Shown piece by piece: positions 10,888 through 56,853 of a DNA stretch of 64,000 nt (positions are counted from its first letter, which is position 1; every line of letters starts with the position of its first letter). The notes under the pieces were generated by a model that was given only the letters and a program-made list of their open reading frames with translations, was not told the origin of the DNA and made no database searches. The position numbers and the translations under genes are program-made. This DNA comes from Candidatus Omnitrophota bacterium (GTDB lineage Bacteria; Omnitrophota; Omnitrophia; Omnitrophales; Aquincolibacteriaceae): contig JAKLIQ010000004.1 in NCBI GenBank assembly GCA_022709525.1, positions 73,260-137,259 of the forward strand, in the 5' to 3' direction.

Positions 10888-10901
10888 AGGAGGTTTATTC
10901 C

Positions 10902-11627: not shown

Positions 11628-11631
11628 CGTC

Positions 11632-16913: not shown

Positions 16914-16983
16914 CGTTCTAGTGCTGGCTTTTCGCCGAAATTTCCGTAAAATGACACTCCACACCCAATAAAGAGATCTTTCC

Positions 16984-26944: not shown

Positions 26945-26946
26945 CC

Positions 26947-28428: not shown

Positions 28429-29141
28429 AAACTTTGATCGTAATGCCCACCTATAATGAACGCGACAATATCGAGCGCCTTGTGGGCCGCCTGATGAACG
28501 TCGATTCCGGCATCGATGTTCTCATAGTTGACGACAATTCGCCTGACGGAACAGGGGATCTTGCAGAAAGACTCGCGCAAAAGAATCCGAGAATTCATGT
28601 GCTTCGACGGCCCGGCAAACAAGGTCTTGGGCCCGCGTATATCGCCGGCTTCCAATGGGGATTGTCGCGCGATTACGACGCTTTCATGGAAATGGATGCG
28701 GATCTATCGCATCGCCCTCGCTATATTCCGCGTTTTTTACAGGAAATCAAAGATGCGGATATCGTCGTAGGGTCTCGGTGGATCAAAGGGGGAGGTATCG
28801 CGAATTGGCCTCTATCCCGTGTTTTTCTTAGCCGTATGGCGAGCCTCTATGCAAAGCTTATTCTTGGCGTATCGATCGCCGACATGACCGCCGGCTACAT
28901 CTGTTATCGCCGTAAAGTTTTGGAAGAGCTCGGACTTGATCGTATTCATTCTGACGGTTATTGCTTTCAAATCGAAATGAAATATCGCGCCCTTTGCCGC
29001 GGCTTCAAGATCGTCGAGATCCCCATCATTTTCACCGATCGTAAGGCGGGGAATTCTAAAATCTCACGTCATATCGTTCTTGAAGCCCTGATTATCACCT
29101 GGATACTACGATTCAGAAAAAAGCTATTTGAACGACCATGA
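28425..29141 (+). CDS. Polyprenol/dolichol-phosphate mannosyltransferase-like GT2 (Dpm1/Ppm1 family)
   Basis: LIVMPTYNERDNI, VDDNSPDGT and a DAD motif. 238 aa, soluble. Confidence 0.85.
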   Translation: MKTLIVMPTYNERDNIERLVGRLMNVDSGIDVLIVDDNSPDGTGDLAERLAQKNPRIHVLRRPGKQGLGPAYIAGFQWGLSRDYDAFMEMDADLSHRPRYIPRFLQEIKDADIVVGSRWIKGGGIANWPLSRVFLSRMASLYAKLILGVSIADMTAGYICYRRKVLEELGLDRIHSDGYCFQIEMKYRALCRGFKIVEIPIIFTDRKAGNSKISRHIVLEALIITWILRFRKKLFERP

Positions 29142-29269: not shown

Positions 29270-31066
29270 ATGGACCAATTTGCCGCGTTTGTTCATGTTG
29301 TATGGATTGTCGCTCTCGGAAATTTCTGGGGCCAACGGATCCTTGTTTGGGCAAAGTATAAGTTTGATTCCGAACTCGAACGAACTGCTTTTGGTTTTGC
29401 GGCCGGATTCGGCTCTTTTGGCCTTCTCTTGGCGATCCTCGGCTCCTTGGGTTTCTTTTCCGCTTCGGCTTGTTATTTATTTTTCATCTCTCTGACCGTT
29501 CTTCTTTTTTTTGGCTGGAAAGACCTACCCCCCTGGAACCCAAGGTTGATTTTTGAAGCATTACAAAAAAGCCCGCTTCTTTGGGCGCTAAGCGCTGTGC
29601 TGGCTCTAGCCATCATTCAATCCATGACCCCTTCAACTGCTCATGACGCGCTTGCTTACCAGCTTGAAATACCAAAACGCTTTGCACTGGCTCATCGTAT
29701 TTGCTATGTGCCATACGGCGTCAATTCCGTATTCCCGCTACTCATGAACATGTTCTATGTTCTTTCATTGCTTTGGGACGGAACCCGCATGGCAAATCTG
29801 TTCCATTGCGTGACCGGCCTTGGCATCGTTATCGGATTACTTGCGATCGAGAGAAGATTCATTCCAAAGTCTTGGCTCGGAATAAGCGCTTTGATTTTCG
29901 CGTTGACCCCCGGTATTTTTGGTCAAATGTCACTGGCCTACACCGATGTCGCTTTGAGTTTTTTTATTTTCTTTGTTTTTTATTCGATTTTAAAATGGCA
30001 GGAAACCGCGGATCTGAAATGGTTCGTTCTGGCTGGCATCTACTTGGGCTTTGCCTTCGGAGTAAAATACCTTGCGGCGCTCGCCGCAATTTCGGTTACG
30101 GCGTATTTGATTGTCCTTGCGTCTTTAAGGAAAATAAAACTAGGGCCAGCGCTTGCGGGGCTTTTTTTGATGGCTTCCATTTCCTTCTTGATCGGATTCG
30201 CTTGGTATTTTCGTTCTTTTCTCTACGAAGGAAGCTTTCTTTACTTTGGAGAAAAAGGCTACATCGCCAAAAATCTGGGATATCTCAATTCATTTGCGCT
30301 TCCTTGGTCGATGACAATGCATCCACAATACTTTGGAGGCTCGTGGACGCGGCTTGGCATCATATTCCTAGCTTTTTTGCCCGGTTTGTTTCTGATTCGA
30401 AAGAAACCGGCGGCCGCTAACACTTTTCTTTTTTGGGGGATCATTTATTTTTGCTTGTGGACCCTTCTACCGAGACAGAATCTTCGCTTCCTTTTTCCGG
30501 TCTGCGCGCTGTGGTCGTTACCCATCGGCCATCTGATCGCATCCGGTTTTCCTGAGAAATGGCTCACGAAATGGTCCCGAATTTTTATTTTTGCCATTCT
30601 TATAATCGAGGCGGGTGCAGCTTTTTATCACGGAAGGAACAGCTACCGGGTCGCCCTGGGATTAGAGACTGAGGAGGATTATTTAAAACGAACGGAGCGA
30701 ACTTATGCGGTTGCTCAATTTGTGAACACGAATCTCCCTGAAAATGCAAAGATTCTAAATGCTTACGAGGTCCGGATGTTCCATTTTCGGCCGGAAGTGA
30801 TACGTGAGCCGGAATTTCGCCAAAAAACACACTACGACACTCGCTTCGCAACTTCCGAAGAAACCGTCGATTTTTTAAAACGTGCCGGCATCACCCATGT
30901 TTTGATCGCCCCGAGCGATGCTGCGGAGAAGCAAATCTTTCCGCCAAGAAATATCCGCCAACTTGTTTCCGATGCTCAAGTCGGGAAGAGCCGCTTTAAG
31001 GAGCTCTATCGAGAACCTTCCCAAAAAGATTCCGAATCAGGATATACGGTCCTGAGCCTTATATAA
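29270..31066 (+). CDS. GT-C fold membrane glycosyltransferase (PMT_2/ArnT family)
   Basis: Polytopic membrane protein with a STAHDALAYQLEIPKRF acidic-loop motif and a C-terminal soluble domain. Confidence 0.7.
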   Translation: MDQFAAFVHVVWIVALGNFWGQRILVWAKYKFDSELERTAFGFAAGFGSFGLLLAILGSLGFFSASACYLFFISLTVLLFFGWKDLPPWNPRLIFEALQKSPLLWALSAVLALAIIQSMTPSTAHDALAYQLEIPKRFALAHRICYVPYGVNSVFPLLMNMFYVLSLLWDGTRMANLFHCVTGLGIVIGLLAIERRFIPKSWLGISALIFALTPGIFGQMSLAYTDVALSFFIFFVFYSILKWQETADLKWFVLAGIYLGFAFGVKYLAALAAISVTAYLIVLASLRKIKLGPALAGLFLMASISFLIGFAWYFRSFLYEGSFLYFGEKGYIAKNLGYLNSFALPWSMTMHPQYFGGSWTRLGIIFLAFLPGLFLIRKKPAAANTFLFWGIIYFCLWTLLPRQNLRFLFPVCALWSLPIGHLIASGFPEKWLTKWSRIFIFAILIIEAGAAFYHGRNSYRVALGLETEEDYLKRTERTYAVAQFVNTNLPENAKILNAYEVRMFHFRPEVIREPEFRQKTHYDTRFATSEETVDFLKRAGITHVLIAPSDAAEKQIFPPRNIRQLVSDAQVGKSRFKELYREPSQKDSESGYTVLSLI

Positions 31067-31112
31067 TCCTTGAGCTTTGCTCCTTTTTTGTTTTTGTTTG
31101 ATTTCAAGGATT
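31065..31112 (+). terminator. Terminator-like structure: 9-bp inverted repeat AATCCTTGA/TCAAGGATT enclosing a GAGC-TTT-GCTC hairpin plus T-tract
   Basis: Read directly, immediately after the GT-C stop codon and before the phosphoramidate module. Confidence 0.4.
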
Positions 31113-31169
31113 CTCCAGAGTACGCTATTCGCTCAAATGTCTTATTTTGAATCATTAAGAGGATTTTGC

Positions 31170-33518
31170 ATGGTCACGGAATTAATGGGAACAAAAGCTG
31201 AGACTCTGGAGCGAATCGCTTCGCTTTTGACGAGATCGATCGTACAACCTGTCTGCAAATTTACCGTGAGTGAATGGCGTTCGGATGAGAGCGGGTGCCT
31301 CGCTCGCATTCAAAGCCATTTTGCCCATCAGCCTGGTCCTTTTATCGTCCGTTCTTCTGCGATCGAAGAGGATCTGGCCAACCTTTCGAACGCCGGAAAA
31401 TTCACTTCGATCGCAGGGGTCGAGCTAAAAGATCGGTCCAAACTTCGACATGCTATTCAATCAGTAATCGCCTCCTACGGAGAGCTTTCTTCGGGACAAA
31501 ACCAGTTCTTCCTCCAACCCATGGTCAAAGATGTTGCTATAAGCGGCGTTGTTTTCACCCGCGATCTTGACACGCTGTCACCGTACTACATTATCAATTA
31601 CGACGACGCTTCCCATCGCACTGACAGCGTGACATCAGGCAGATCGAATAAACTTAAAACTTTTGTAAAGTTCCGGAATTTCAAGACAAAGAATAGAAAA
31701 TTCGAAAAACTTATGGAGGCAATCGCGGAAGTTGAAACGGTCTGCAAAAGCGACTGTCTTGACATCGAATTCGCCATTGAAAAGACAGGGCAGATCCATC
31801 TTTTGCAGGTTCGGCCTATCGTAACTCGAGGCCGGACACTTCCTAAAGTATTCATGGTTGGTCATTATCTGCACAAGATCTTCATGAAAATCGACCATAT
31901 TAATGCGCCTCACCCCTATCTTCACGGCTGGCGCACCTTTTTAGGCGTTATGCCGGATTGGAATCCGGCCGAGATGATCGGTGTAAAACCGCGGCCTTTA
32001 GCGCTTTCTCTCTATAAGGAGTTGATCACCGATAAGACGTGGTCCTACCAACGTGATGACTACGGTTATCGAAATGTCCGTTCTTACCCGCTTCTGGTGA
32101 CGCTGATCGGTCATCCTTATATCGATGTGCGGGTCAGTTTCAATTCATTCATACCCAAAGGGATCGATGAAGAATTGGCGTCGCGCTTGGCAAATTATTT
32201 CTTGACAAAGCTGCAGGATTCTCCGGCCAGCCATGACAAAGTGGAATTTGATGTTGTTTTTTCCTGCTTCTTTCTCAATCTTGAAGACAAGCTTCAAGGG
32301 CTCAAAAAAAATGGTTTTACGGAAAGCGACCTCAAAAAAATCAAGGACGCGCTGATTGAATTAACCAACAACATTCTGACCCATCATAATGGGATTTTTG
32401 CCAACGATCTCAATAAGATCACCGAATTAGAGGAAAGGCAGCAAAAAGTCCTGACGTCTTCATTGAACCCGATTGAAAAAATTTACTGGCTTTTGGAAGA
32501 TTGCCGCCGTTACGGTACGCTTCCATTCGCCGGGTTGGCGCGGGCAGGATTTGTCGCCGTTCAATTCCTCCGTTCCATGGTTGAAACGAAAGTGATTTCC
32601 CGCGAAGATTTTGATGACTTCATGGCGTCGCTTGATACGATCGCAAAGCAAATGGCGCGGGATCGCAGCGCGCTTTCAAAAGAAAAATTTCTCGCCCGCT
32701 ATGGGCACCTCCGTCCCGGAACTTATGATATCCTCTCCTTAAACTACCGCGAAGGTTATGACCTCTACTTTTCAAATCAGCCTCTTCCCCAGGATCCTCC
32801 TGCTAAGAAAGATTTCCGCTTCAAAGATTCTCAACTCCGAACCCTTGATCTTCTTCTTAAAAAAGAGGGGATTCAAGTAAGCGCTGAGGATCTCATTACT
32901 TTCTTAAGGCAAGCCATCGAGGGAAGAGAATACTCGAAATTCGTTTTTACTAAAAGCGTGAGCGAAATCTTAGGGCTTGTAAAAGAATTGGCGGCCTTTT
33001 ACGAACTCACCCCCGAAGACGCTTCTTTCATTGATATCAAAACCATCTTGCATTTGTATGCAACGCTCGACCATCGCGATCTCTCCTGCATCTTGGCCGA
33101 AGAAATCGAGCGCAACCGCAGTTTCTATGAAATCACCAAATTGATCAAATTGCCGGCATTTATCGTTGAACCTGATAATGCTTTTGAATTCGAACTTGAA
33201 GAGGGAAAACCCAACTACATTACCTTGGGGCGCGCTCGTGGAGAGACGATACTGGAAGAAAATATTTTGACGAGCAATCTCGACGGCAAAGTCGTTCTTA
33301 TCCCAAGCGCTGACCCGGGATATGACTGGATATTCACGCGCCCGCTGGCCGGACTTATTACGATGTACGGAGGCGCTAATTCCCATATGGCCATCCGCGC
33401 GGCTGAACTGCGCATCCCGTCCGTCATCGGTGCCGGTGAAAAAAATTATTCCGAATGGTCCCGCGCCAAATACCTTGAGATTGATTGCGCTAATCAACAA
33501 GTAACGGTGCTCCGATGA
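31170..33518 (+). CDS. PEP-utilising-enzyme-family ATP-dependent kinase (ATP-grasp N-domain plus C-terminal phosphohistidine mobile domain); candidate L-glutamine kinase (Cj1418-like)
   Basis: C-terminal GGANSHMAIRAAELRIPSVIGAG phosphohistidine motif and a PPDK_N-like N-terminus. The ATG at 31170 has an AAGAGGA site upstream; the longer track ORF would run into the terminator. Confidence 0.65.
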   Translation: MVTELMGTKAETLERIASLLTRSIVQPVCKFTVSEWRSDESGCLARIQSHFAHQPGPFIVRSSAIEEDLANLSNAGKFTSIAGVELKDRSKLRHAIQSVIASYGELSSGQNQFFLQPMVKDVAISGVVFTRDLDTLSPYYIINYDDASHRTDSVTSGRSNKLKTFVKFRNFKTKNRKFEKLMEAIAEVETVCKSDCLDIEFAIEKTGQIHLLQVRPIVTRGRTLPKVFMVGHYLHKIFMKIDHINAPHPYLHGWRTFLGVMPDWNPAEMIGVKPRPLALSLYKELITDKTWSYQRDDYGYRNVRSYPLLVTLIGHPYIDVRVSFNSFIPKGIDEELASRLANYFLTKLQDSPASHDKVEFDVVFSCFFLNLEDKLQGLKKNGFTESDLKKIKDALIELTNNILTHHNGIFANDLNKITELEERQQKVLTSSLNPIEKIYWLLEDCRRYGTLPFAGLARAGFVAVQFLRSMVETKVISREDFDDFMASLDTIAKQMARDRSALSKEKFLARYGHLRPGTYDILSLNYREGYDLYFSNQPLPQDPPAKKDFRFKDSQLRTLDLLLKKEGIQVSAEDLITFLRQAIEGREYSKFVFTKSVSEILGLVKELAAFYELTPEDASFIDIKTILHLYATLDHRDLSCILAEEIERNRSFYEITKLIKLPAFIVEPDNAFEFELEEGKPNYITLGRARGETILEENILTSNLDGKVVLIPSADPGYDWIFTRPLAGLITMYGGANSHMAIRAAELRIPSVIGAGEKNYSEWSRAKYLEIDCANQQVTVLR

Positions 33519-34150
33519 AAAAAATCCTCTTAAGCCAACGTTTAATTCAAAATCCAAGTTATCCTGAGATTCGGGAAGCGCTCGACATCCAATGGGGCGC
33601 ATTTCTTTCTAAATGCGGTCTGCTTCCGATCGCATTATCATTCAAAGCCCCGCTTGACGAATATTTCCGTTTGATCAAGCCGGATGGGGTCCTTTTAACG
33701 GGAGGGAACGATCTTGCTTCGCTCAATCCCACGGATCCATTATGCAAGATGCGCGATGAGTTCGAAAGTCGGTTGATCGAGATTGCCGTAAAATCCAAGA
33801 TCCCTCTGCTGGGAGTTTGCCGTGGGGCGCAAATGGTCGCTCATTTCTTTGGATCAACCTTTAAAAAGCGGGATGGCCATGTCGGCATCAACCATCGGGT
33901 GCGTTTCCAAGGACGCGGGATCTTCGAAGCAAACTATTCCCAAAAGACTTTGGTCAATTCGTACCACGGTTTTTGCATTCAAAGCACCGGCAAAGAACTT
34001 CTGACTGAAGGGATTGTGGAGACCGATCAGACCGTGGAAGCCTTTTCTCATAAATCACTTCCGATCTTTGGTATGATGTGGCATCCAGAACGCGTCGACC
34101 CGTTTTTAGTTTCCGATATTTCTTTTTTTAAAAAAATCTTTAAAGCTTAA
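33515..34150 (+). CDS. Class I glutamine amidotransferase-like / peptidase C26 hydrolase; candidate gamma-glutamyl-CDP-amidate hydrolase (Cj1417-like)
   Basis: Cys nucleophile (GVCRGAQM) and His (MWHPER) motifs. 211 aa. ATGA overlap with the upstream kinase. Confidence 0.7.
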   Translation: MKKILLSQRLIQNPSYPEIREALDIQWGAFLSKCGLLPIALSFKAPLDEYFRLIKPDGVLLTGGNDLASLNPTDPLCKMRDEFESRLIEIAVKSKIPLLGVCRGAQMVAHFFGSTFKKRDGHVGINHRVRFQGRGIFEANYSQKTLVNSYHGFCIQSTGKELLTEGIVETDQTVEAFSHKSLPIFGMMWHPERVDPFLVSDISFFKKIFKA

Positions 34151-34158
34151 GGGGTTCC

Positions 34159-34893
34159 ATGCGAGCAATCATATTGGCGGCGGGGGAAGGACAACGCCTT
34201 CGCCCCTTAACACTTGATCGGCCTAAATGCCTTGTGGAATATCAAGGAAAACCGATCATTGATTACCAGATCGACACCATGCGCTCCTGCGGCATCAAAG
34301 ATATCGTTTTGATCAAAGGCTATAAACAGGAAACCCTCCAGCGCCCTAAAGTCCGCTATGTGATCAATCCCGAATATGCAACGACCAATATGGTGGCGAC
34401 TTTATTTTGCGCCGAATCTTATTTTGACGATGATCTTTTGATCAGCTATGGCGATATTCTTTATGGCCGGTCGATCCTGGAACCGGTGCTTGCTTCCAAT
34501 GAGGATTTTGCCGTAGCGGTATCAATGAATTGGAAAGAGCTTTGGCTCAAACGCATGGATGACCCTCTGAAGGATGCCGAGACCATGAAACTCGATGACC
34601 GCGGATTCATCCGGGAGTTGGGCAAAAAACCAAAATCCTACGATGAGATCCAAGGTCAATACATGGGGCTTTTTAAGATCAAGAAAAAAATGCTTCCAAA
34701 GGTCAGAGCTGCTTATCATGATGCAGACAAAAATGCGGTTTATGACGGTAAAAATTATCGGAATATGTTCATGACGAGTTTTATTCAGCTGATGATCGAT
34801 AAAGGTTTTCCGGTCAAAGCCGTCCAAGTCACGGGGGAGTGGCTTGAGATCGATCATCTGGAAGATCTTAAAGTTTCCTGCAAATTCGACTGA
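34159..34893 (+). CDS. LicC-like nucleotidyltransferase; candidate CTP:phosphoglutamine cytidylyltransferase (Cj1416-like)
   Basis: MRAIILAAGEGQRLRPLT nucleotidyltransferase signature. 244 aa. Confidence 0.7.
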   Translation: MRAIILAAGEGQRLRPLTLDRPKCLVEYQGKPIIDYQIDTMRSCGIKDIVLIKGYKQETLQRPKVRYVINPEYATTNMVATLFCAESYFDDDLLISYGDILYGRSILEPVLASNEDFAVAVSMNWKELWLKRMDDPLKDAETMKLDDRGFIRELGKKPKSYDEIQGQYMGLFKIKKKMLPKVRAAYHDADKNAVYDGKNYRNMFMTSFIQLMIDKGFPVKAVQVTGEWLEIDHLEDLKVSCKFD

Positions 34894-34955
34894 ATGCCAA
34901 TCTTTTTAATGCCATTTTATTTGATAATTTTTGTATACTATCGGCCTGAAAACCT

Positions 34956-35681
34956 ATGAAAACTAACGCAAAAACCCAAGTGGTTGCGATCGATGGACCG
35001 TCTTACGTGGGGAAGAGCACCATCTCCAGAGAGTTGGCCGACCGGATGGGGTTCCTTTATGTCAACACCGGACACATGTATCGTGCGATCGGCCGCATCG
35101 CGATCGAAAACAAGATCGACCCCAAAGATGAGACTGCTATTGTCAAAATCGCAAAAACGACCGATTTTAAATTTTTCAGCGGCAAAGGTTTCTGCGGCAC
35201 TGTTGTCAACGGCAAAGACTGGACGCGGGAGCTGGACCATCAAGATATCGTCTTTTTCGCCTCGCGGATCTCGGTCATCCGGGAATTAAGGGATATCCTC
35301 ACAGCTAAACAGCGGGAGTTCTCGCAAGAACATCCAATCGTTATGGAGGGGCGCGACATCGGTACCATTGTGTTCCCTGATGCCATGTGGAAGTTTTACA
35401 TCACCGCTTCCGTTGAGATCCGGGCCTGGCGCATGTTCAAGATAATGACGGAGGAAGAAAAGAAGAAATGCCCTGACTATCACGTCTTGATCCCCAAGAT
35501 CGAAAAACTGGATGAGATCGACCGTAATCGTGAAATCGCCCCCTTGAAACTTGCTGCCGACGCCGTAATCTATGACAATTCAGACAGCCCGACGGAAGTC
35601 CAGGATGCGATCATCCTGCAATATTACATGAATCACAGAGATGAGATCTGTCGAAACTCAGCTCTTCTGAAAAACAAGTAA
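34956..35681 (+). CDS. cmk: Cytidylate kinase-family P-loop kinase
   Basis: IDGPSYVGKST P-loop, NTGHMYRA and GRDIGTIVFPDA motifs; the last closely matches E. coli Cmk (GRDMGTVVFPDA). Confidence 0.8.
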   Translation: MKTNAKTQVVAIDGPSYVGKSTISRELADRMGFLYVNTGHMYRAIGRIAIENKIDPKDETAIVKIAKTTDFKFFSGKGFCGTVVNGKDWTRELDHQDIVFFASRISVIRELRDILTAKQREFSQEHPIVMEGRDIGTIVFPDAMWKFYITASVEIRAWRMFKIMTEEEKKKCPDYHVLIPKIEKLDEIDRNREIAPLKLAADAVIYDNSDSPTEVQDAIILQYYMNHRDEICRNSALLKNK

Positions 35682-35698
35682 ATCGGAAGGGTAAGGCC

Positions 35699-36577
35699 TT
35701 GGAGACTATCGCGGAATTAAGAAAGATCTGCCAAACAACCGCAAAAAAGGACGTTTCAAATGTTTACATGCGGTATGTTTCCCGTTTTTTTTCCATCTAT
35801 CTGACGCGGCTTATCCTTCCTTATCCGGTCACTCCCAATCAGGTCAGTTTCGCCATGATCGTTACCGGAGTGATTGCGACATTCTTTTTCTTAAACCCCT
35901 CAAACCTGATCTTTTTGACCGGCGCACTGCTTCTGCAGCTTTGGTACATCATCGATTGCATGGACGGGGAAGTGGCGCGATACCGACAATACCAGCAAAA
36001 AAAGATCGTTGTTACCGATAAACGGCAATCCGGCATGTCGGGAAAATATTATGACGTGATCAATCACTATATTATCAACCTGCTTGTTCCTGCCATGATC
36101 GGCGTCGGTCTGTTCGAACAAACTGCTAATAAATTCTACATCGTCCTTGGGATTTTCGGCGCCCTTGGGCAGGTACTCACGCTTGCCATGCATGACGGCG
36201 GACATCGAATCACGATCGATAAGCTTATGAAATTCCGCTCGGTTCGAATTTCGGGCGAAATGAGCGGAGATCCTGAAAATCCCATCGATAACTCGAAAGA
36301 GAAACGTAGCCTGGCGCATTGGGCATTCATGATCGTCCATTACACCACAACATATCCGACCGTCATGAACCTCGTTTTGATCGCGGCAATCTTTGAAATC
36401 TTACTGCCGGGCTGGAATTGGCGGATCTCGCTTTTATGGTACCTAACCGCCGCATCCCTCCTTGTCTCGGCGACGATCATCACACGAACGATTGGCCAGA
36501 ATATCTTGGACCGGGAATTTCAAAAGAATTTTCAAGAGATCGAATCTGATGACCCTTCAGGGCCCTCCGGGTCCTGA
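35699..36577 (+). CDS. CDP-alcohol phosphatidyltransferase-family membrane protein (divergent motif)
   Basis: DCMDGEVAR matches D-x2-D-G-x2-A-R. The second half of the motif is divergent (insertion; G-x3-D-x3-H). About 6-8 transmembrane helices. TTG start with a GGAAGGG site upstream; an alternative ATG lies at 35768. Confidence 0.55.
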   Translation: METIAELRKICQTTAKKDVSNVYMRYVSRFFSIYLTRLILPYPVTPNQVSFAMIVTGVIATFFFLNPSNLIFLTGALLLQLWYIIDCMDGEVARYRQYQQKKIVVTDKRQSGMSGKYYDVINHYIINLLVPAMIGVGLFEQTANKFYIVLGIFGALGQVLTLAMHDGGHRITIDKLMKFRSVRISGEMSGDPENPIDNSKEKRSLAHWAFMIVHYTTTYPTVMNLVLIAAIFEILLPGWNWRISLLWYLTAASLLVSATIITRTIGQNILDREFQKNFQEIESDDPSGPSGS

Positions 36578-36769: not shown

Positions 36770-37759
36770 ATGATTAATGCGATGGTGACAGGCGGCGCCG
36801 GTTTTATTGGAAGCCACTTGACCGAATTATTGATCCGCGAGGGGTGTCGCGTAACGGTCCTTGATAATTTTTCGACCGGACGGCGGCAAAATCTGCGATC
36901 TCTAGAAAAAACAAAGAACCTGACCATTCACAAGGCGGATATAAGCCGGTTTGACGCTATTAAGACCCTTTTTAAGGGAGTCGATTATGTGTTCCATCTT
37001 GCGGCCTTAGCGGATATTGTGCCCTCGATCGAAAGGCCGTTAGATTATTACAAGTCTAACGTCAGCGGTACGGTTTCCGTGCTTGAAGCAAGCCGGCGGG
37101 CCGGCGTGAAGCGGTTCCTTTATGCCGCATCTTCTTCATGTTACGGTATTGCGCGGGAATATCCGACCAAAGAGACCGCTGAGATCCGTCCCGAATATCC
37201 TTACGCTCTGACAAAAAATCTCGGTGAACAATGCGCGATGCATTGGAGCAAAGTCTACGGTCTTCCAACCGTATCGCTTCGTCTCTTTAATGTCTATGGG
37301 CCAAGAGCGCGCACTTCTGGAACTTATGGCGCTGTCTTCGGCGTTTTTTTAGCTCAAATGCTTCACAAGAAACCTTTTACGGTAGTCGGGGATGGAACTC
37401 AAACAAGGGATTTTGTTTTTGTAACCGATGTCGCAAAAGCGTTTTGGAAAGCCGCCAATGCCGATATTTCGGGCGAGATCTTCAATATTGGCTCCGGATC
37501 TCCGGTCAGTGTTAATCGGATCACCGAAATCCTTGGAGGTGATGTCGTTTTTGTTCCCAAGCGGCCAGGAGAACCGGATGTGACGCATGCAGATATCACA
37601 AAGGCGAGAAAGGTTCTCGGATGGGAGCCGGTCATAAAGATCGAGGAAGGAATCCAGACGTTGAAAAAAAATATTAATGATTTTAAAAATGCGCCGGTTT
37701 GGACTCCGGACTCAATAAAAGAGGCTACAAAAACGTGGTTCGCTTATTTGAAAGGCTAA
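36770..37759 (+). CDS. NAD-dependent epimerase/dehydratase-family protein (UDP-sugar 4-epimerase-like)
   Basis: VTGGAGFIGSH Rossmann motif and YxxxK. 329 aa, extended SDR fold. Confidence 0.85.
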   Translation: MINAMVTGGAGFIGSHLTELLIREGCRVTVLDNFSTGRRQNLRSLEKTKNLTIHKADISRFDAIKTLFKGVDYVFHLAALADIVPSIERPLDYYKSNVSGTVSVLEASRRAGVKRFLYAASSSCYGIAREYPTKETAEIRPEYPYALTKNLGEQCAMHWSKVYGLPTVSLRLFNVYGPRARTSGTYGAVFGVFLAQMLHKKPFTVVGDGTQTRDFVFVTDVAKAFWKAANADISGEIFNIGSGSPVSVNRITEILGGDVVFVPKRPGEPDVTHADITKARKVLGWEPVIKIEEGIQTLKKNINDFKNAPVWTPDSIKEATKTWFAYLKG

Positions 37760-37760
37760 C

Positions 37761-39326
37761 ATGAGCTCCAAAACCAAGGAAGCAAAGCGTCTTAAGGTCG
37801 ACCATTTCGCTGAAAAAATCAAATCGCTCAACACCCTCGAAAAAACCATCGCAAAAATCAAAAAGAGCGGTAAAAAGGTCGTCCACTGTCATGGTGTTTT
37901 TGACCTGATGCACCCGGGACATATCCATCACTTTTACGCTGCACGTAAAAAAGGGGATTACCTTGTTGTCACTTTGACCAAAGATGAATATGTCGGAAAA
38001 GGGCCTGGACGTCCCGTTTTCAATCAAAGATTAAGAGCGGAATCGGTCGCTGCGGTCGAGTGCGTCGATTATGTTGCCATCAATGAATGGCCTACGGCCG
38101 TGGAAACCATTCGAAAGCTGAAGCCGAACTTTTACGTTAAAGGTATCGAATACGCGGCGCCGGATGAGGATATCACGGGCAATATCCGTCCGGAGCGGGA
38201 AGCGGTTGAAAGTATCGGCGGAAAGCTTGTATTCACAGATGAAGTGCGCTTCAGTTCGAGTAATATCCTTAACACTTATTTCAGCGTCTTTTCCGAAGAA
38301 ACGCGCCTTTTTCTTCAGCAATTCCATAAACGCTACAGCGAAGAAGACGTCATAAAACACTTAAAGGACCTTGAGGGCTTGAAGATCCTTGTTATTGGCG
38401 ATACGATCATCGATGAATACCATTACTGCAAAGCGCTCGGAAAATCTCCGAAAGAAACCATGGTCACTACCAAATATCTCAACTCCGAATCTTTTGCCGG
38501 CGGCGTTCTGGCTTGCGCGAACCATGCGGCTTCATTCTGCGGAAATGTGGATTTGGTTACCTGCCTTGGCCGCGAGAACTCCCATGAAGAATTCATTCGA
38601 AAACATTTAAAACCCAATATCAAGCCCCATTTTTTCTACCGCGAAAATGCTCCAACGATCGTCAAGCGGCGTTTTGTCGAACCGGTCTTTCTTTCCAAAA
38701 TGTTCCAGGTCAGCTTTCTGGAAGATTCCTCGCTTCCCCCTCAAACAGACGAGGCTCTGCGCGCCCATCTTCTTAAGATCCTTCCGAAGTATGACGCTGT
38801 GTTGGTGGCGGATTATGGCCACGGCTTTCTTAGCCCGGCAACGATCGCGCTTTTAGGTAAAAAAGCGAAGTTTCTTGCGGTCAATACTCAAACCAACAGC
38901 GCGAATCTTGGCTTTAACCTTGTCACAAAATATCGTCATGTCGATTATATTTGCATCGATGAACCCGAGATCCGGCTTGCGATGCATGACAAGAGCGGAC
39001 CTTTAGAGCCGCTTATCGAGCGAGTCAGCAAGCTGTTGAAAACAAAAATGGTCATGATCACAAGAGGCCACCTCGGCTCAATCGCTCACAGAAACGGTGA
39101 GGCATTCGCCGCAACGCCTATTTTTTCAAGCGAGATCGTCGACCGCGTAGGGGCGGGAGACGCTTTCTTCGCCGTAACTGCCCCGTGCGCGGCTAAAGGA
39201 TACCCTTCGGATCTGATCGGTTTTATCGGCAATGCAGTGGGAGCTATGGCGGTCCGGATCGTTTGTAACCGTTCCTTCATCGAATCGGTACCATTGTGCC
39301 GTTTTATTTCAACCTTGCTCAAATGA
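37761..39326 (+). CDS. Bifunctional nucleotidyltransferase (HxGH cytidylyltransferase-like, N-terminal) / PfkB-family sugar kinase (C-terminal); HldE/RfaE-like with reversed domain order
   Basis: N-terminus has HCHGVFDLMHPGHI (HxGH nucleotidyltransferase motif). The C-terminus has PfkB motifs (GDTIIDEY..., DRVGAGDAF). Confidence 0.7.
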   Translation: MSSKTKEAKRLKVDHFAEKIKSLNTLEKTIAKIKKSGKKVVHCHGVFDLMHPGHIHHFYAARKKGDYLVVTLTKDEYVGKGPGRPVFNQRLRAESVAAVECVDYVAINEWPTAVETIRKLKPNFYVKGIEYAAPDEDITGNIRPEREAVESIGGKLVFTDEVRFSSSNILNTYFSVFSEETRLFLQQFHKRYSEEDVIKHLKDLEGLKILVIGDTIIDEYHYCKALGKSPKETMVTTKYLNSESFAGGVLACANHAASFCGNVDLVTCLGRENSHEEFIRKHLKPNIKPHFFYRENAPTIVKRRFVEPVFLSKMFQVSFLEDSSLPPQTDEALRAHLLKILPKYDAVLVADYGHGFLSPATIALLGKKAKFLAVNTQTNSANLGFNLVTKYRHVDYICIDEPEIRLAMHDKSGPLEPLIERVSKLLKTKMVMITRGHLGSIAHRNGEAFAATPIFSSEIVDRVGAGDAFFAVTAPCAAKGYPSDLIGFIGNAVGAMAVRIVCNRSFIESVPLCRFISTLLK

Positions 39327-39925
39327 AAGCGACCATGAATATCCGAGACTATTTCTCAAATTTGAAACTTTGCTTAGATGCGGTAGAAGTGCGCGACGAG
39401 AAGCAAAATCTGCTCGCCCCGGACCCCGGCTTTCAACGCGCGATCGAATGGATCGCGGCCGCAGGAAAAAAACATGCTAAAGTGATCTTTGTCGGTAACG
39501 GCGGCAGCGCGGCGATCGCGAGCCATCAGGCGGTGGACCTCTGGAAAAACGGAGGCATTCGTGCGATCGCCTTTAATGATGCGTCGTTGCTCACCTGCGT
39601 CGGCAACGATTACAGTTATCCGGAAATTTTTGAAAAACCGGTCGCTATGTTCGCGGACGCAGACGACGTCCTAATCGCGATAAGTTCTTCCGGCCGATCG
39701 TCCAACATCCTTAAGGCCGCGCAAAAAGCCAAAGAACTTGGCTGCCGCGTTATCACGATGTCGGGATTCAAATCTGACAACCCGCTGCGCCAAGCGGGCC
39801 ACGTGAATTTTTATATACCATCCGATAGTTACGGATTCGTCGAAATCGCACATCTCACCCTTTGCCACTATCTGACGGATCATTTCGTTTCGGCCGCGCA
39901 AAAATTCCGGAAAAGCGGGGATTAA
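39323..39925 (+). CDS. gmhA: D-sedoheptulose-7-phosphate isomerase (SIS domain)
   Basis: SIS-domain motifs (VGNGGSAAIASH, ISSSGRS). ATGA overlap with the upstream gene. Confidence 0.8.
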   Translation: MKATMNIRDYFSNLKLCLDAVEVRDEKQNLLAPDPGFQRAIEWIAAAGKKHAKVIFVGNGGSAAIASHQAVDLWKNGGIRAIAFNDASLLTCVGNDYSYPEIFEKPVAMFADADDVLIAISSSGRSSNILKAAQKAKELGCRVITMSGFKSDNPLRQAGHVNFYIPSDSYGFVEIAHLTLCHYLTDHFVSAAQKFRKSGD

Positions 39926-39938
39926 CCTTCTTCTGAAT

Positions 39939-41006
39939 ATGGATAAATACCGGATCGATAGCCATAAGTTGCTCTATCACGTTGACAGGACCAGTGACTG
40001 GCTTGCCGGAAAGAATATTTATCCTATTTATGCCGAAATTTCTCCCTGCGGGGCATGTAATCACCGGTGCATTTATTGCGGCCTTGATTTCATGAAGTAT
40101 CAATCGCGCCGGCTTGAGACGGCGCTTCTAAAAGAAAGATTGACTGAACTCGGCCGGCTCGGCCTCAAAAGCATCATGTATGCAGGAGAAGGCGAGCCTT
40201 TCCTTCACAAGGATATGGCCGAGATCATTGAACACACAAAAAAATCCGGCATTGATGTGGGAGTTACTTCGAACGCCGTGCTCTTTGATGAAAAAACGGC
40301 GGAACGGACGCTTTCGTGCATGGCTTGGATCAAAGTGAGCATTAACGGCGCCACGCCGGAGACTTACGCGAAAATCCACCAAACTAAACCCGAAGACCTT
40401 GACCGGGTCTTTAAGAATATGGCTTTTGCGGCTCAAACTAAAAAGAAAAACAATTATGCATGCACTTTGGGAATGCAGCTTCTCCTGCTTCCCGAAAATC
40501 ACCATGAAGCTAAGCTGCTCGCCCAAAAAGCCAAAGAAATCGGAATGGACTATCTTGTGATCAAGCCCTACTCCCAGCACCCTTCGAGCTTGACCAAAAT
40601 CTATCAGAACATCCGCTACAGCGACTACGATTATCTTGAGAACGAGCTTAAGGATCTGAACGATAAAAATTTCAACGTGATCTTTCGAGCCCGATCGATG
40701 AAAAAATGGGACGAGGCCGCCCGTAATTACAAGCGTTGTCTGGCGCTGCCATTCTGGACTTATATTGACGCCGGCGGGGATGTGTGGGGGTGCAGCATTT
40801 ATCTTGGGAATAAAGATTTTCTTTACGGAAATATTTATAAGAATACTTTCAAGGAGATCTGGGAAAGCGACGCGAGGAAAAAATCCCTCGAAAAAGTCGC
40901 GACTTGCCTTAATGTTGAAAACTGCCGGGTCAACTGCCGGATGGACGAGATCAACCGCTATCTCTGGGAATTAAAAAATCCTCCGGCTCACGCGAATTTC
41001 ATCTGA
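39939..41006 (+). CDS. Radical SAM protein with C-terminal Cys-rich (SPASM/twitch-like) region
   Basis: CX3CX2C (CNHRCIYCG) near the N-terminus. C-terminal CLNVENCRVNCRMD. Confidence 0.8.
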   Translation: MDKYRIDSHKLLYHVDRTSDWLAGKNIYPIYAEISPCGACNHRCIYCGLDFMKYQSRRLETALLKERLTELGRLGLKSIMYAGEGEPFLHKDMAEIIEHTKKSGIDVGVTSNAVLFDEKTAERTLSCMAWIKVSINGATPETYAKIHQTKPEDLDRVFKNMAFAAQTKKKNNYACTLGMQLLLLPENHHEAKLLAQKAKEIGMDYLVIKPYSQHPSSLTKIYQNIRYSDYDYLENELKDLNDKNFNVIFRARSMKKWDEAARNYKRCLALPFWTYIDAGGDVWGCSIYLGNKDFLYGNIYKNTFKEIWESDARKKSLEKVATCLNVENCRVNCRMDEINRYLWELKNPPAHANFI

Positions 41007-41818
41007 TGAAAAACCAGCTTCTTGCAAAAGCCAACGCGATTCGCGACGAGATCCTCAGGGTCTCAATCAAAAATAAAGCCGGCCACATCGCCCCCTCGCT
41101 TTCATCGGTGGATATCCTGACCGCGCTCTACTACAAGATCTTATCCTACAACCCCAAAAAACCTTTATGGGAAGACCGGGATCGAGTGGTTTTTTCAAAA
41201 GCGCACGGTTGTTACGCGCTTTACGCGATCCTTGCCGATCTTAACGTGATTCCCCGGAAAGAATGGGAAGGCTTTTATACATCGGAAAGTTCGCTTTTGG
41301 GCTGCATGGAGCACCGTCCGGAATATGGCCTTGAGGCAGGATGCGGATCGCTCGGGCATGGGTTGCCGATCGCGGTCGGCATTGCTTACGGCGCTAAGCT
41401 CCAAGAAAAAAAATATACGACATATTGCGTGATGGGGGACGGTGAATTCCAGGAAGGTTCGGCCTGGGAAGCGATCCTTTTTGCGATTAAGCATCAAGTT
41501 TCGAATCTTACGATCCTGGTGGACCACAATCGACTTCAAGCTATGGATTTTGTAAAAAACGTTCTTGATTCCGAGGAAAAAGAACTGATCAAGCGGTTGA
41601 AAGGATTCGGGCTTAATCCGATGCTTTGCCCCGGCCATGATCCTAAGGAGATCGCCGACTGCATCCATGCCGCGCAAAAATCAAATGCTTCGGTACCGGC
41701 GATCGTCGTCGCAGAAACGATCAAAGGATTTGGCCTAAAATGCATGGAAAACGTTCCGAAGTTCCATTTCAGAATCCCGAGCGATGAAGAATTAGCTAAA
41801 GGGAAAAGCTATGGATGA
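41006..41818 (+). CDS. Transketolase, N-terminal (TPP-binding) subunit
   Basis: TPP-binding GDGE and HGxxALY-type motifs. 270 aa, split-type transketolase. Confidence 0.85.
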   Translation: MKNQLLAKANAIRDEILRVSIKNKAGHIAPSLSSVDILTALYYKILSYNPKKPLWEDRDRVVFSKAHGCYALYAILADLNVIPRKEWEGFYTSESSLLGCMEHRPEYGLEAGCGSLGHGLPIAVGIAYGAKLQEKKYTTYCVMGDGEFQEGSAWEAILFAIKHQVSNLTILVDHNRLQAMDFVKNVLDSEEKELIKRLKGFGLNPMLCPGHDPKEIADCIHAAQKSNASVPAIVVAETIKGFGLKCMENVPKFHFRIPSDEELAKGKSYG

Positions 41819-42302
41819 AGCCGTTAACTACCGCAAAGATATTCTAGATCTGTTGATCCCTTATTTCCGGAAAGATAAACGGTATTATCTGCTTCTCTGT
41901 GATATGGGATTTGGAGCTGTGGATAAAATACGCGCGGAGTTCCCGGACCGGGTAATCAATTGCGGCATCATGGAGCAGGGAACGGTCGGCATTGCGGCCG
42001 GTATGAGCCTAAGCGGTCTGATCCCGGTTGTTTATTCGATCGTCAATTTCTTGGTCTATCGCGCTATCGAGCAGGTTCGCAATGACGTTATCCTGCAGGG
42101 CCTGAACGTTAAATTCGTCTCGACCGGCGTGAACGATTATTTTAAATTTCTCGGCCCGTCCCATTGTTGCGGCCAAGACGACATCCGTCTTATGGAATTG
42201 ATCCACATGAAAGTCTACGACCCCTACCAAACAAAAGCCCCTTTTCCTGAATTGGTCAATGATTGGATCCGAGATGCAAAGGCGGGATATCTTCGGGTTT
42301 AA
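41811..42302 (+). CDS. Transketolase C-terminal-side subunit reduced to the pyrimidine-binding domain (163 aa)
   Basis: IMEQGTVGIAAGMSL Pyr-domain motif. Lacks the usual C-terminal TKC domain. Overlaps the N-terminal subunit by 8 nt. Confidence 0.65.
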   Translation: MDEAVNYRKDILDLLIPYFRKDKRYYLLLCDMGFGAVDKIRAEFPDRVINCGIMEQGTVGIAAGMSLSGLIPVVYSIVNFLVYRAIEQVRNDVILQGLNVKFVSTGVNDYFKFLGPSHCCGQDDIRLMELIHMKVYDPYQTKAPFPELVNDWIRDAKAGYLRV

Positions 42303-42308
42303 ACGGGT

Positions 42309-44033
42309 TCAGGCCGTTGTTCGCTGTAATTTGTAGACAAAAATACTTGTGCTCGGAAGTTTACGCGAAACAGCGGGGATTTTGCTAAGCATTTTAAAAA
42401 ACCGGAAAAGAAGAGGCTTTGAATCGAAAAGATCGTATTGCTTCCATAGAGACGCCTCAATCCCGGCGTCCTTGAGGGCGACCAACCTCTCTGGCTGAAG
42501 CGTCCGCGAATAAAGAAAAACAGCCGGCTCCTCCGCTAATCGGTCCTTAACGATCTCGATCCAATCGGACGGCAGATCATACCAATCAACGATCACGGCG
42601 CGACGCTCCAATTCCGTATGGCGTTCATAAAGACTTGTATCCGTCGGCGCTTCGCCGTAAACCAAAGGAAAAATATCTTTCTCCGCCCGCACAAGGGCAT
42701 CCTGCATCCCGCCATAATGACCAAGAAGCTTCGAATAAGTGAAAAAATTTAATAAACACGTCGCGACCACAAGCAGAATTAATGCGCTGAGGAAGACTCT
42801 CGACCTCTTTAGAGATGAGAAGAAAGCCTTTTGCAGCTCATCAAGCGCCAAAAAAAATACGATCAGCGACGGCAAATACGCAAAATTAAGAAAACGGCTG
42901 TCAGTTAACGGCATGCTGGAACAAAATCCGCAGAGGATCGCGACGAACCAGACAAGAAACAGATTGAAATGATGACGCCGGATCTCAAAATCCGGCGGGC
43001 CGGTCGGTGAAGGTTTTCGGAGGTTGAAGAGAAAAAAAGCGACAAAAAGACCGAGCCAGAAAAGAACGCCTAAAAAAAGACCGTAATTTTCGGTAAATGA
43101 AAGCGGATTTCTGCTTCGCCGAAAGATCGATTTAAAGGAAAATTCTCCGTCCGGCACAAAAAAGGTTCGTTGCAAACCATTTTGCCATTTCAACGAAAAC
43201 ATTTTTTTGTCTTTAGGAGCTTCCACTTTGCTGGCTGCGAGATTGTCTTCCGGATTGATCTTCCTCGCAATCTCATTAAAAAAAGTTTTGGAAGGAACAA
43301 CAAGAAAAAAGCTTACCGCCACAACAAAAACCGCGATCGCGGTCTTCAAAAAGCCGATCCTTCGGTAAATCGAACGGCATTGCCAAATAAGGAATCCAAG
43401 ACAAACGACCGGAAGAATCTTCTCGGAGGACTTTAATTTGATCGCAAGCCATACCGAAATAAGCCATAAAAACGCGAGGAAAGAGAATGCGATCACGGAC
43501 TTGGAACGCTGCAAGGTCAAACGGCCGAATAAAAGGATCGCCGTGAGCGACAGAATGGAGATGTAGAATTGAAAATCGGCCGAAAAATCCGAAATAAGCA
43601 TGAAGACATTGCTCGGAAAGGTCAGGTAGAGCGCTACGGCAAGCCAGCCCCAGAGCTTGCGTTTTGTCCAATGTGCGATGATGCCGAATAAAAGAGCGGA
43701 TAAAAGACCGCAGCCGACCGCTGTCACCACGTGGAGAGGCGGCAAGGTGTAGCCCAAGCTATCAAATTCGAATTTCAAAAACAAGAATTGCAGAGGGCGC
43801 AGATAGACCATGAGATCGGTCCGCGAAGTCGGCGGATAAAACCAGGATGGCGTGCTCGGATTCAGTGTAAGCTTGACAAGCTCCCCATAGCTAACCGCGC
43901 CGGTACCGCGAACAACCAGCGGATAGTCCGCATTGAAATCGTAAGGAAGACCGACATAACAGGTAAAAAAGAAAGCGAAGGCGACCAGCGCGACCAAACA
44001 TAGATGAACCGTCAAAGTATCTTTTCTTTCCAT
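42309..44033 (-). CDS. Polytopic membrane protein with C-terminal soluble domain; possible GT-C-type glycosyltransferase/polymerase
   Basis: 574 aa with 10 or more hydrophobic helices. No family motif recognised with confidence. Confidence 0.45.
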   Translation of the reverse strand: MERKDTLTVHLCLVALVAFAFFFTCYVGLPYDFNADYPLVVRGTGAVSYGELVKLTLNPSTPSWFYPPTSRTDLMVYLRPLQFLFLKFEFDSLGYTLPPLHVVTAVGCGLLSALLFGIIAHWTKRKLWGWLAVALYLTFPSNVFMLISDFSADFQFYISILSLTAILLFGRLTLQRSKSVIAFSFLAFLWLISVWLAIKLKSSEKILPVVCLGFLIWQCRSIYRRIGFLKTAIAVFVVAVSFFLVVPSKTFFNEIARKINPEDNLAASKVEAPKDKKMFSLKWQNGLQRTFFVPDGEFSFKSIFRRSRNPLSFTENYGLFLGVLFWLGLFVAFFLFNLRKPSPTGPPDFEIRRHHFNLFLVWFVAILCGFCSSMPLTDSRFLNFAYLPSLIVFFLALDELQKAFFSSLKRSRVFLSALILLVVATCLLNFFTYSKLLGHYGGMQDALVRAEKDIFPLVYGEAPTDTSLYERHTELERRAVIVDWYDLPSDWIEIVKDRLAEEPAVFLYSRTLQPERLVALKDAGIEASLWKQYDLFDSKPLLFRFFKMLSKIPAVSRKLPSTSIFVYKLQRTTA

Positions 44034-48735: not shown

Positions 48736-49003
48736 ATGCAAATCAATGAATTTGAGGTCTATACCCCTAAGGAAACGCAGGCGCTGCTCAAAGTAAGTCC
48801 GAGCACGATGATGCGTATGATCAAAAACGGCCTTATAGGGGCCGCAAAGGTTGGGAAGCAATACCGCATCCTGGGTAAAGAGATATTGCGGGTGATCTCT
48901 CCAAAACTCGAGGATAAAGTCGGCAAAGCCTACAATAAGGCACGCCATTGGGTACACGAAGGCATCGATGAGAAACCGTCCCCCAAAAATAAGCACAATT
49001 CTC

Positions 49004-49020
<17 letters not shown>
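48736..49020 (+). CDS. Excisionase/MerR-type helix-turn-helix DNA-binding protein (94 aa)
   Basis: LLKVSPSTMMRMIKNGLIGAAKVGKQYRI has the HTH_17/Xis-family pattern. Confidence 0.55.
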
Positions 49021-51898
<2,878 letters not shown>

Positions 51899-51899
51899 T

Positions 51900-52976: not shown

Positions 52977-52977
52977 T

Positions 52978-53748: not shown

Positions 53749-53749
53749 C

Positions 53750-54379: not shown

Positions 54380-54380
54380 T

Positions 54381-55773: not shown

Positions 55774-55775
55774 AT

Positions 55776-56840: not shown

Positions 56841-56853
56841 CCCGGAGGTTACC

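Follow-up and report, generated by a model that had tools for sequence, protein, structure and literature searches.

The window analyzed here is a 64-kb stretch (64,000 nucleotides) of contig JAKLIQ010000004.1 from a Candidatus Omnitrophota bacterium, and its central part (31077-36577) is one co-directional gene module. The module ends with a gene pair encoding a cytidine monophosphate (CMP) kinase (CMK) paralog and a membrane protein with the fold of the CDP-alcohol phosphotransferases. It begins with a cassette of three genes whose homologues in Campylobacter jejuni make cytidine 5'-diphosphoramidate (CDP-amidate). Based on sequence comparison and gene neighborhood, we propose with moderate confidence that the membrane protein would transfer the phosphoramidate group of CDP-amidate to a membrane-bound hydroxyl acceptor, the freed CMP being recycled by the CMK. 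In C. jejuni, three enzyme activities make cytidine diphosphoramidate, which is then 3'-phosphorylated by Cj1415, and Cj1421/Cj1422 are needed for the transfer (PMC11800397). The attachment of phosphoramidate to a sugar is the least understood step of this O-methyl phosphoramidate (MeOPN) pathway, and the attachment of CMP-activated phosphonates to cell-surface molecules has also been described as enigmatic (PMC6697681).

All genes of the module lie on the forward strand. The first one (31077-33518) encodes a homologue of the L-glutamine kinase Cj1418 with the Pfam domains PPDK_N and PEP-utilizers, scoring 953 bits against NCBIfam NF004508 (cutoff 501). Gene callers place its start at 31137, while the open reading frame (ORF) starts at 31077. 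The protein is 49-50% identical, over its full length, to the copies of Geomonas and Nitrohelix, and its relatives are named 'glutamine kinase' by JGI. Overlapping the end of this gene by 4 bp is the gene for a homologue of the gamma-glutamyl-CDP-amidate hydrolase Cj1417 (33515-34150; Pfam Peptidase_C26/GATase). Its top NCBIfam match is NF045546 with 187.5 bits, below the cutoff of 250, and the next family reaches 48 bits; it is 38-40% identical to and syntenic with the Geomonas and Nitrohelix copies, which belong to cassettes of the adenylylsulfate (APS) kinase type. The third gene (34159-34893) encodes a Cj1416-like cytidylyltransferase of the NTP_transf_3/LicC type (Pfam NTP_transf_3 and NTP_transferase), which has the CTP:phosphocholine cytidylyltransferase LicC among its top PDB sequence matches (E 1.3e-16). 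It is 50% identical to the nucleotidyltransferase (NT) of the Nitrohelix cassette and 35% to that of Geomonas, both in the same cassette position. Overall, the three cassette genes match those of Geomonas sp. RF6 and Nitrohelix in order and over their full length (35-50% identity), with overlaps or gaps of no more than 62 bp up to the CMK gene. The first three enzymes of the C. jejuni MeOPN pathway have homologues in one operon-like string in the window, and CDP-amidate is the expected intermediate.

The cassette is followed by the CMK paralog (34956-35681, 241 aa; Pfam Cytidylate_kin PF02224, NCBIfam TIGR00017) and, 17 bp after its stop codon, by the gene for the membrane protein (35699-36577, 292 aa), the proposed phosphoramidate transferase. 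The coordinates given in the original prediction for a cytidylate-kinase-family gene and a polytopic membrane protein directly after the nucleotidyltransferase gene proved exact. A promoter and terminator scan of the region 26-38 kb yielded counts at or under the shuffled expectation and was hence uninformative.

The signature of the CDP-alcohol phosphotransferases is present in altered form at residues 86-123 of the membrane protein (DCMDGEVARYRQYQQKKIVVTDKRQSGMSGKYYDVINH; nucleotide positions below are on the forward strand). Its first half, D86-C-M-D89-G-E-V-A-R94 (35954-35980), has the canonical sequence pattern (DCMDGEVAR) and is located on a predicted helix spanning residues 69-101. A 20-residue spacer, YRQYQQKKIVVTDKRQSGMS (35981-36040), takes the place of the canonical 8 residues, i.e., there is a 12-residue insertion; it takes in the last part of helix 69-101 and the loop that precedes helix 113-142, with a mean pLDDT of 86. 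The second half, G115-KYY-D119-VIN-H123 (36041-36067; GKYYDVINH), carries His in place of the fourth Asp, so that the whole pattern reads D-x2-DG-x2-AR, 20 residues, G-x3-D-x3-H. Residues D86, D89, G90, E91, A93, R94, G115, D119, N122, H123 and Y124 are invariant in 34 homologues, and 68 of 72 close homologues share the 20-residue spacing together with the His. A sequencing accident therefore does not account for the altered second half, and the earlier description of it, an insertion and a terminal Asp changed to His after an intact DCMDGEVAR, holds. The replacement is, however, not peculiar to the window protein. In the wider clade, the 143 nearest representatives of clusters at 50% identity were compared, and the fourth-Asp position is occupied by His in 106 of them, by Asn in 12 and by Asp in 3. 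This wider clade keeps the 8-residue spacer in 114 of the 124 representatives bearing the motif, while the narrow family with the 12-residue insertion amounts to about 72 clusters at 90% identity and is set apart by a gap in scores from 189 to 102 bits. Members of the narrow family are nearly all proteins from metagenomes or metagenome-assembled genomes, the few named ones coming from Omnitrophota, Verrucomicrobiae and Planctomycetia bins.

With regard to the fold, the profile search against Pfam PF01066 that the original prediction had proposed gave a match of 23.0 bits (cutoff 22, E 1.2e-4), which is marginal alone, and among the 72 close homologues just 4 have a precomputed PF01066 match. 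When 34 family members were combined into a profile, on the other hand, the archaeal enzymes AF2299 (E 2.4e-12) and IPCT-DIPPS (E 4.6e-5) were matched. The AlphaFold model of the membrane protein (pLDDT 91, pTM 0.87) exhibits the six-helix membrane fold of the superfamily with the motif lying across helices 2 and 3. The relation to the CDP-alcohol phosphotransferase superfamily is real, and the fold is kept together with three of the four signature Asp residues, those that bind metal and diphosphate. Since His123 invariantly replaces the fourth Asp, the proposed catalytic base in the PF01066 superfamily, and the spacing also departs from the canonical one, the protein should be filed as a variant clade of the superfamily. 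When compared to AF2299 (4o6m/4o6n) and IPCT-DIPPS (4mnd), it shows 17-19% identity, the 12-residue insertion and the His at the fourth-Asp position, and it lacks their fused cytoplasmic domain; furthermore, its proposed head group would be P-NH2 or P-C rather than a phospho-alcohol.

A role as a housekeeping lipid synthase (PgsA, PIPS/AIPS, Pss or Pcs) was considered and dismissed. The NCBIfam model for archaetidylinositol phosphate synthase gave 29.2 bits (cutoff 180) and that for PIP synthase 19.9 bits (cutoff 170), and the genes are found in a glycan-island context: all annotated family loci are glycan-biosynthesis islands, with no lipid-synthesis neighborhood. A grouping with the PgsA/PIPS synthases, which had been named beforehand as evidence against a phosphoramidate transferase, was thus not seen, scores staying at or below 29.2 bits against cutoffs of 170-180. 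The start of the gene also deserves mention. Public gene calls place it 23 codons later (Met24, 269 aa) and miss the N-terminus encoded by 35699-35767, which is conserved throughout the family. Given that this N-terminus, METIAELRKICQ, is conserved in all homologues and that GGAAGGG is located just upstream, the TTG at 35699 is the true start.

Homologues of the membrane protein were collected from one-genome-per-species contigs and metagenome contigs, resulting in 29 distinct family loci, the window included (the others are designated by L numbers). Linkage to a CMK was counted in the 24 loci whose upstream DNA extends for 0.8 kb or more, hereafter informative loci. A CMK gene was found upstream of the membrane-protein gene in all 24, across several phyla, with a gap of 6-128 bp in 23 of them and two intervening genes in the remaining one; a C-terminal CMK fragment is also visible in two further, truncated loci. 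What precedes the pair differs among loci. The glutamine kinase/Cj1417/Cj1416 cassette is present in six (the window, L001, L002, L003, L021 and L023), and a phosphonate cassette in about ten (L004, L006, L007, L008, L010, L012, L022, L024 and L030, with L011 partial). The latter consists of a fusion of PEP_mutase and NTP_transf_3, a thiamine pyrophosphate-dependent decarboxylase and either an iron-containing alcohol dehydrogenase (Fe-ADH) or a second cytidylyltransferase. Both cassette types share the order NT-(NUDIX)-CMK-transferase. The upstream cassette is interchangeable, and the pair is not tied to the phosphoramidate genes alone. Both cassettes end in a cytidylyltransferase, and therefore their products share a CMP leaving group on a small phosphorus head group. 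The original prediction of a candidate phosphoramidate transferase with CMP recycling agrees with the context, namely the cassette homologues, the CMK linkage in 24 of 24 loci and the lack of a detectable 3'-kinase, but the pair is found with more than this cassette. Likewise, the expected co-occurrence with homologues of Cj1418-1416 was observed in six loci, whereas about ten loci have the PEP-mutase cassette and four have neither within 5-10 kb.

A neighbor-joining tree places the six phosphoramidate-linked transferases in one clade, which branches from among the phosphonate-linked ones of the Fe-ADH type, and the family descends from phosphonate-linked members. The window protein is 59% identical to the transferase of the phosphonate locus L022 and no closer to those of L003, L021 and L023 (58-60%). 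Alignment positions 97, 133 and 161 separate phosphoramidate-linked from phosphonate-linked transferases. A NUDIX gene resembling NudE/NudK is situated between the cytidylyltransferase and CMK genes in most relatives, namely L003, L004, L006, L008, L012, L021-L024, L028-L036 and L057 (e.g., L019, 6716-7246). It occurs in three phosphoramidate-type loci, and none was found at that place in the window, L001 or L002. By analogy with Gmm, which acts on GDP-mannose, such a hydrolase may trim the pool of CMP-activated donor.

The comparison of the linked CMKs covered the window protein, the copies of loci L001-L037 and proteins P0370-P0427. The window CMK scores 191.8 bits against PF02224 (cutoff 26) and 202.1 bits against the TIGR00017 cmk model (cutoff 135.55), and it is homologous over its full length to E. 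coli CMK (PDB 1kdo; E 1.1e-35). The Walker A motif and the equivalents of R41, R110, R131, D132, R157, D185 and R188 are invariant in the 24 linked CMKs, and an equivalent of the S/T36 ligand is present. The linked CMK has the Walker A motif of the E. coli enzyme and its ligands for cytosine, ribose and phosphate, and differs from it in the residue at Arg181 and in its location within glycan islands. This position is occupied by Leu in the window CMK and by Leu or Ile in all 24 linked copies. In the 120 best database matches, it is Leu or Ile in 52 of the top 58, many of which lie on contigs equal in length to those of the transferase matches. The following 62 are ordinary CMKs, among them one from Omnitrophota at 39% identity, and 60 of these have Arg. 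Arg171 of Thermus thermophilus CMK, the equivalent of Arg181, is a LID-domain residue that contacts the acceptor nucleotide phosphate (PMC7259600). Because the linked kinases form a Leu/Ile181 clade of their own, distinct from ordinary CMKs, and are linked to the transferase, they are dedicated paralogs and not housekeeping genes. The 'CMK-like kinase' noted earlier does belong to the cytidylate kinase family, but as a distinct paralog lacking Arg181 and not as an ordinary cmk. A change of Ser36 to Thr was also considered as a signature of the paralog and discarded, as Thr occurs in ordinary CMKs too.

That the CMK is an ordinary housekeeping cmk, present by chance, is hardly credible: its score does exceed the NCBIfam equivalog cutoff, but it adjoins the transferase in 24 of 24 loci of several phyla and falls in a separate clade in which 52 of 58 members carry Leu/Ile at Arg181, unlike ordinary CMKs. 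The idea that it could stand in for the 3'-kinase Cj1415 was rejected as well, since the CMP-kinase active site is kept and the protein occurs equally with phosphonate cassettes. A marine locus, L057, combines the same CMK type with a NUDIX gene, a Fom1-like fusion, a decarboxylase, an Fe-ADH and a more distant CDP-alcohol phosphotransferase-like gene, whose product has Leu at the fourth-Asp position.

The question of the 3'-kinase was approached through glutamine-kinase loci from beyond the phosphoramidate clade, namely Geomonas RF6 (L052), Nitrohelix vancouverensis (L054) and a metagenome contig (L053). Geomonas and Nitrohelix possess the full three-gene cassette, while the metagenome contig shows the kinase alone. 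In all three loci an APS_kinase gene adjoins the glutamine kinase, and neither a CMK nor a CDP-alcohol phosphotransferase-like gene is present in them. Their candidate transferases have other folds and are a Glyphos_transf protein (L052, 13707-14765), a Sulfotransfer_3-like protein (L054, 8242-9438) and an unannotated protein of 644 aa (L053, 12350-14284), for none of which was a homologue found in the window. Conversely, tblastn with four cassette-locus APS kinases as queries gave no match at E 1e-3, neither in the 64-kb window nor in the family loci, which agrees with the earlier view that no CysC-like 3'-kinase is needed, and APS_kinase is absent from the Pfam annotation of the window between 26 and 46 kb. 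As APS_kinase loci lack the CMK and the CDP-alcohol phosphotransferase-like gene, and family loci lack the APS kinase, there are two alternative downstream solutions for one donor cassette. The same dichotomy is suggested for phosphonates by Campylobacter ppm-ppd clusters, which are flanked by adenylylsulfate kinase according to a survey (PMC8942020). Compared with the C. jejuni pathway, the window is without a homologue of the APS-kinase-type Cj1415, its candidate transferase has a fold different from that of Cj1421/Cj1422, and the by-product would be CMP and not cytidine 3',5'-bisphosphate (3',5'-CBP). In addition, no homologue of the phosphoenolpyruvate (PEP) mutase or decarboxylase was found in the window, although both are present in about ten sister loci, and no methyltransferase of the module type was found in the window.

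Based on these observations, a mechanism can be proposed. Glutamine kinase, cytidylyltransferase and gamma-glutamyl-CDP-amidate hydrolase, acting in this order, would yield CDP-amidate, if their activities are those of the C. jejuni enzymes. CDP-amidate would then be used directly by the membrane protein; because no APS-kinase-type gene is present, the donor would not be 3'-phosphorylated by such an enzyme. The membrane protein would bind the CMP-P moiety through its conserved metal site at the cytoplasmic face of the membrane, the acceptor hydroxyl would be activated, with His123 as the likely base, and P(O)(O-)NH2 would be moved to the membrane-bound acceptor, freeing CMP. The CMK paralog would convert CMP to CDP, lifting product inhibition and refilling the CTP pool for the CTP-consuming cassette. 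In sister lineages, the same kinase-transferase pair would presumably handle CMP-activated phosphonates such as hydroxyethylphosphonate-CMP (HEP-CMP), and the family as a whole would transfer small CMP-activated head groups of the P-C or P-N kind. As regards the donor, we consider this model to have about an even chance of being correct. The acceptor is a more tentative matter, and the polyprenyl-phosphate-linked sugar discussed below is a possibility that we regard as doubtful rather than probable.

The likeliest acceptor may be a polyprenyl-phosphate-linked sugar made by a glycosyltransferase of family 2 (GT2) encoded upstream of the cassette (28425-29141, +; Pfam Glycos_transf_2) and later delivered to the outside by PMT_2 (GT-C) enzymes. 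The GT2 protein resembles polyprenyl-phosphate-sugar synthases; its top NCBIfam matches are AglJ, dolichyl-phosphate hexose transferase, ArnC and PpgS, all far under their cutoffs. It is flanked by two PMT_2 (GT-C) membrane glycosyltransferase genes, one at 26806-28428 (+; weak Pfam match) and one directly upstream of the cassette at 29270-31066 (+), the latter being syntenic in L001, L003, L021 and L023. Among the 17 long family loci, a GT2 of the polyprenyl-P-sugar-synthase type is found in 10 and a PMT_2 (GT-C) homologue in 13, while L007/L017 has YfhO and DUF2079 proteins instead. An additional ArnD-like polysaccharide deacetylase gene and an EamA gene were observed in L019. This arrangement resembles three-component periplasmic glycosylation (ArnC/ArnT, GtrB/GtrC, CsbB/YfhO), in that most long loci combine the pair with a GT2 and a GT-C enzyme (PMT_2, or YfhO in L017). 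However, no such system is known for phosphoramidate or phosphonate on a lipid-linked sugar, and the link to the transferase comes from the gene neighborhood.

Part of this picture has precedents in phosphonate biosynthesis, in which CMP-activated phosphonates are well-established intermediates. PntC makes CMP-aminoethylphosphonate (CMP-AEP) (PMC6697681) and Fom1-type mutase-cytidylyltransferase fusions make HEP-CMP (PMC9088020); sister family members follow such a PEP mutase-cytidylyltransferase fusion, a decarboxylase and an Fe-ADH, while the window has no PEP mutase. CDP-alcohol phosphatidyltransferases have been predicted to move phosphonate head groups in Nostoc and Burkholderia clusters (PMC5987646), whereas the published discussion of the last phosphonate transfer step favors LicD-like enzymes. 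In the literature searched, we found no description of the His-variant family, of its 12-residue insertion, of an obligate CMK partner or of a pairing with the glutamine-kinase cassette that replaces the 3'-kinase. As to an association of CMK with PEP mutase, or a CDP-alcohol transferase in phosphoramidate clusters, the only mention found is incidental, in a Borg preprint that lists a CDP-alcohol phosphotransferase close to MeOPN-like and phosphonate genes and leaves it uninterpreted. The original claim of an 'unprecedented use' of the fold was nevertheless too strong, since phosphonate transfer by this fold had already been predicted and the family derives from phosphonate-linked members; the new element would be the P-N head group.

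Several observations weigh against the proposed transfer. The Asp acting as catalytic base is replaced, and distant relatives have Asn or even Leu at this position, so that catalysis may not follow the canonical mechanism. In the CMK paralog, the Arg that contacts the acceptor phosphate in T. thermophilus CMK is lost, which is odd for a simple CMP recycler. Neither cassette is found within 5-10 kb in L029, L031, L033 and L035, and perhaps L028 and L036. In these cassette-free loci, one or two methyltransferase genes, a NUDIX gene, the CMK and the transferase lie inside nonulosonic-acid or aminosugar genes, and the kinase-transferase pair can thus exist without an adjacent P-X donor pathway. 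Furthermore, the phosphoramidate clade reflects a single evolutionary event, and the case for co-evolution consequently rests on one observation. Finally, the association with GT2 and GT-C genes is frequent but not universal, and the window has other GT2 and PMT pairs, e.g., at 14527-16913; in view of this second pair and of the family loci without one, the GT2 and PMT_2 pair was downgraded as proof of the acceptor.

The altered motif and the cassette-free loci also give some room to other explanations. The membrane protein may perform conventional CDP-alcohol or CDP-diacylglycerol chemistry apart from the cassette, placing phosphoglycerol, phosphoethanolamine, phosphocholine or a phosphatidyl anchor onto a glycan precursor, with the CMK recycling CMP and another enzyme installing the phosphoramidate. 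A conventional role of this kind had already been named as an alternative in the original prediction. The canonical first half of the signature and the loci with no P-X cassette nearby are in line with this, but the only co-conserved cytidylyltransferase that could supply a CDP-alcohol is the cassette NT, and the downstream HldE-like gene is not conserved in L001. Further arguments against it are the NT-(NUDIX)-CMK-transferase order in both cassette types, a transferase tree that tracks cassette type, lipid-synthase scores far under the NCBIfam cutoffs and the failure to find an alternative phosphoramidate transferase or 3'-kinase in the window and family loci, and we consider this explanation unlikely. 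More radically, the protein may not be a phosphotransferase but a CMP/CDP-binding scaffold or a flippase, or it may use a different CMP-activated donor such as CMP-nonulosonate. The former is consistent with the His, Asn or Leu found at the fourth-Asp position across the wider clade, and the latter with NeuB and CMP-nonulosonic acid (NulO) synthetase genes, which occur at 49-57 kb of the window and in many of the family loci; in L031 and L033 they lie immediately upstream. Against this, the invariance of D1, D2, G, A, R, G and D3 is what a functional metal/diphosphate site would show, His can serve as a general base, and no NulO genes lie within 10 kb in L007, L012 and L022. Both ideas together appear very improbable.

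A different acceptor for the same donor also has to be weighed. Transfer to diacylglycerol or another membrane lipid would produce a phosphoramido- or phosphono-lipid instead of a decorated sugar. Eukaryotic ethanolamine phosphotransferases use CMP-AEP with diacylglycerol, and most characterized members of the fold build lipid head groups. In addition, the CDP-alcohol phosphatidyltransferases of the Nostoc and Burkholderia clusters were predicted to make phosphonolipids (PMC5987646). The family loci are, however, glycan islands, most of the long ones with GT2 and GT-C genes and with no lipid-synthesis genes, and members of the wider clade are also located among flippase, glycosyltransferase and methyltransferase genes. 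A lipid acceptor is therefore distinctly unlikely in our view.

Some further features of the loci were recorded. In the cassette-free sub-clade (L029, L031/L050, L033/L051 and L035; also L028 and L036), the neighboring genes encode NeuB, CTP_transf_3, DegT, GFO, PseB-like and HisH/HisF-like proteins. More distant members of the DGEVARY clade (L057, 14121-15014; L055, 8001-9546; L056, 8001-10110) are part of glycan clusters as well, and a methyltransferase gene frequently follows them directly. In the window, the genes downstream of the module (36770-42302) encode an epimerase, an HldE-like protein, a GmhA-like SIS isomerase, a radical SAM/SPASM protein and a split transketolase, and look like a heptose-type nucleotide-sugar pathway. 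The HldE-like protein has a reversed domain order, with a cytidylyltransferase-like N-terminus and a PfkB kinase C-terminus. These genes were examined as a possible donor pathway and excluded, as none is conserved beside the transferase gene of the closest relative, L001 (79% identity), and hence they are not part of the module. A nonulosonic-acid set identified by tblastn occupies 48968-57927 and includes a DegT-like (49013-50122), a CMP-NulO synthetase-like (51173-51892) and a NeuB-like gene (55794-56825). Upstream, the region 9589-19333 contains UDP-glucose dehydrogenase, RmlA-, RmlB- and RmlD-like genes, an epimerase and the GT2 and PMT pair at 14527-16913. Three genes for 2-oxoacid:ferredoxin oxidoreductase subunits (16984-19333) are located inside this otherwise glycan island. 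Two long ORFs were also noted, one of 1109 aa (23615-26944, +) and one of 574 aa with no Pfam match on record (42309-44033, -).

Our analysis predicts a second use of cytidine diphosphoramidate, in which the nucleotide serves directly as donor with CMP as the leaving group, instead of a 3'-phosphorylated donor resembling 3'-phosphoadenosine 5'-phosphosulfate (PAPS). With one transferase family behind both donor cassette types, a clonable candidate becomes available for both transfer steps. We tentatively suggest, although we find it more doubtful than the transfer itself, that in many uncultured bacteria the His-variant family provides the missing last enzyme for decorating the surface with phosphonates as well as phosphoramidates, working with plain CMP donors on a polyprenyl-phosphate-linked sugar at the inner membrane face and with a CMP kinase lacking Arg181 as partner. 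If true, MeOPN-like P-N decoration would occur far outside Campylobacter and be reached by a second route that needs no 3'-phosphorylated donor. Glutamine kinase was called C. jejuni-specific in a review of 2022 (PMC9561416). The family has, however, more than 7800 matches in public data at E <= 1e-20, and given these thousands of homologues of the glutamine-kinase cassette in environmental bacteria, natural P-N glycoconjugates may be much commoner than is known.

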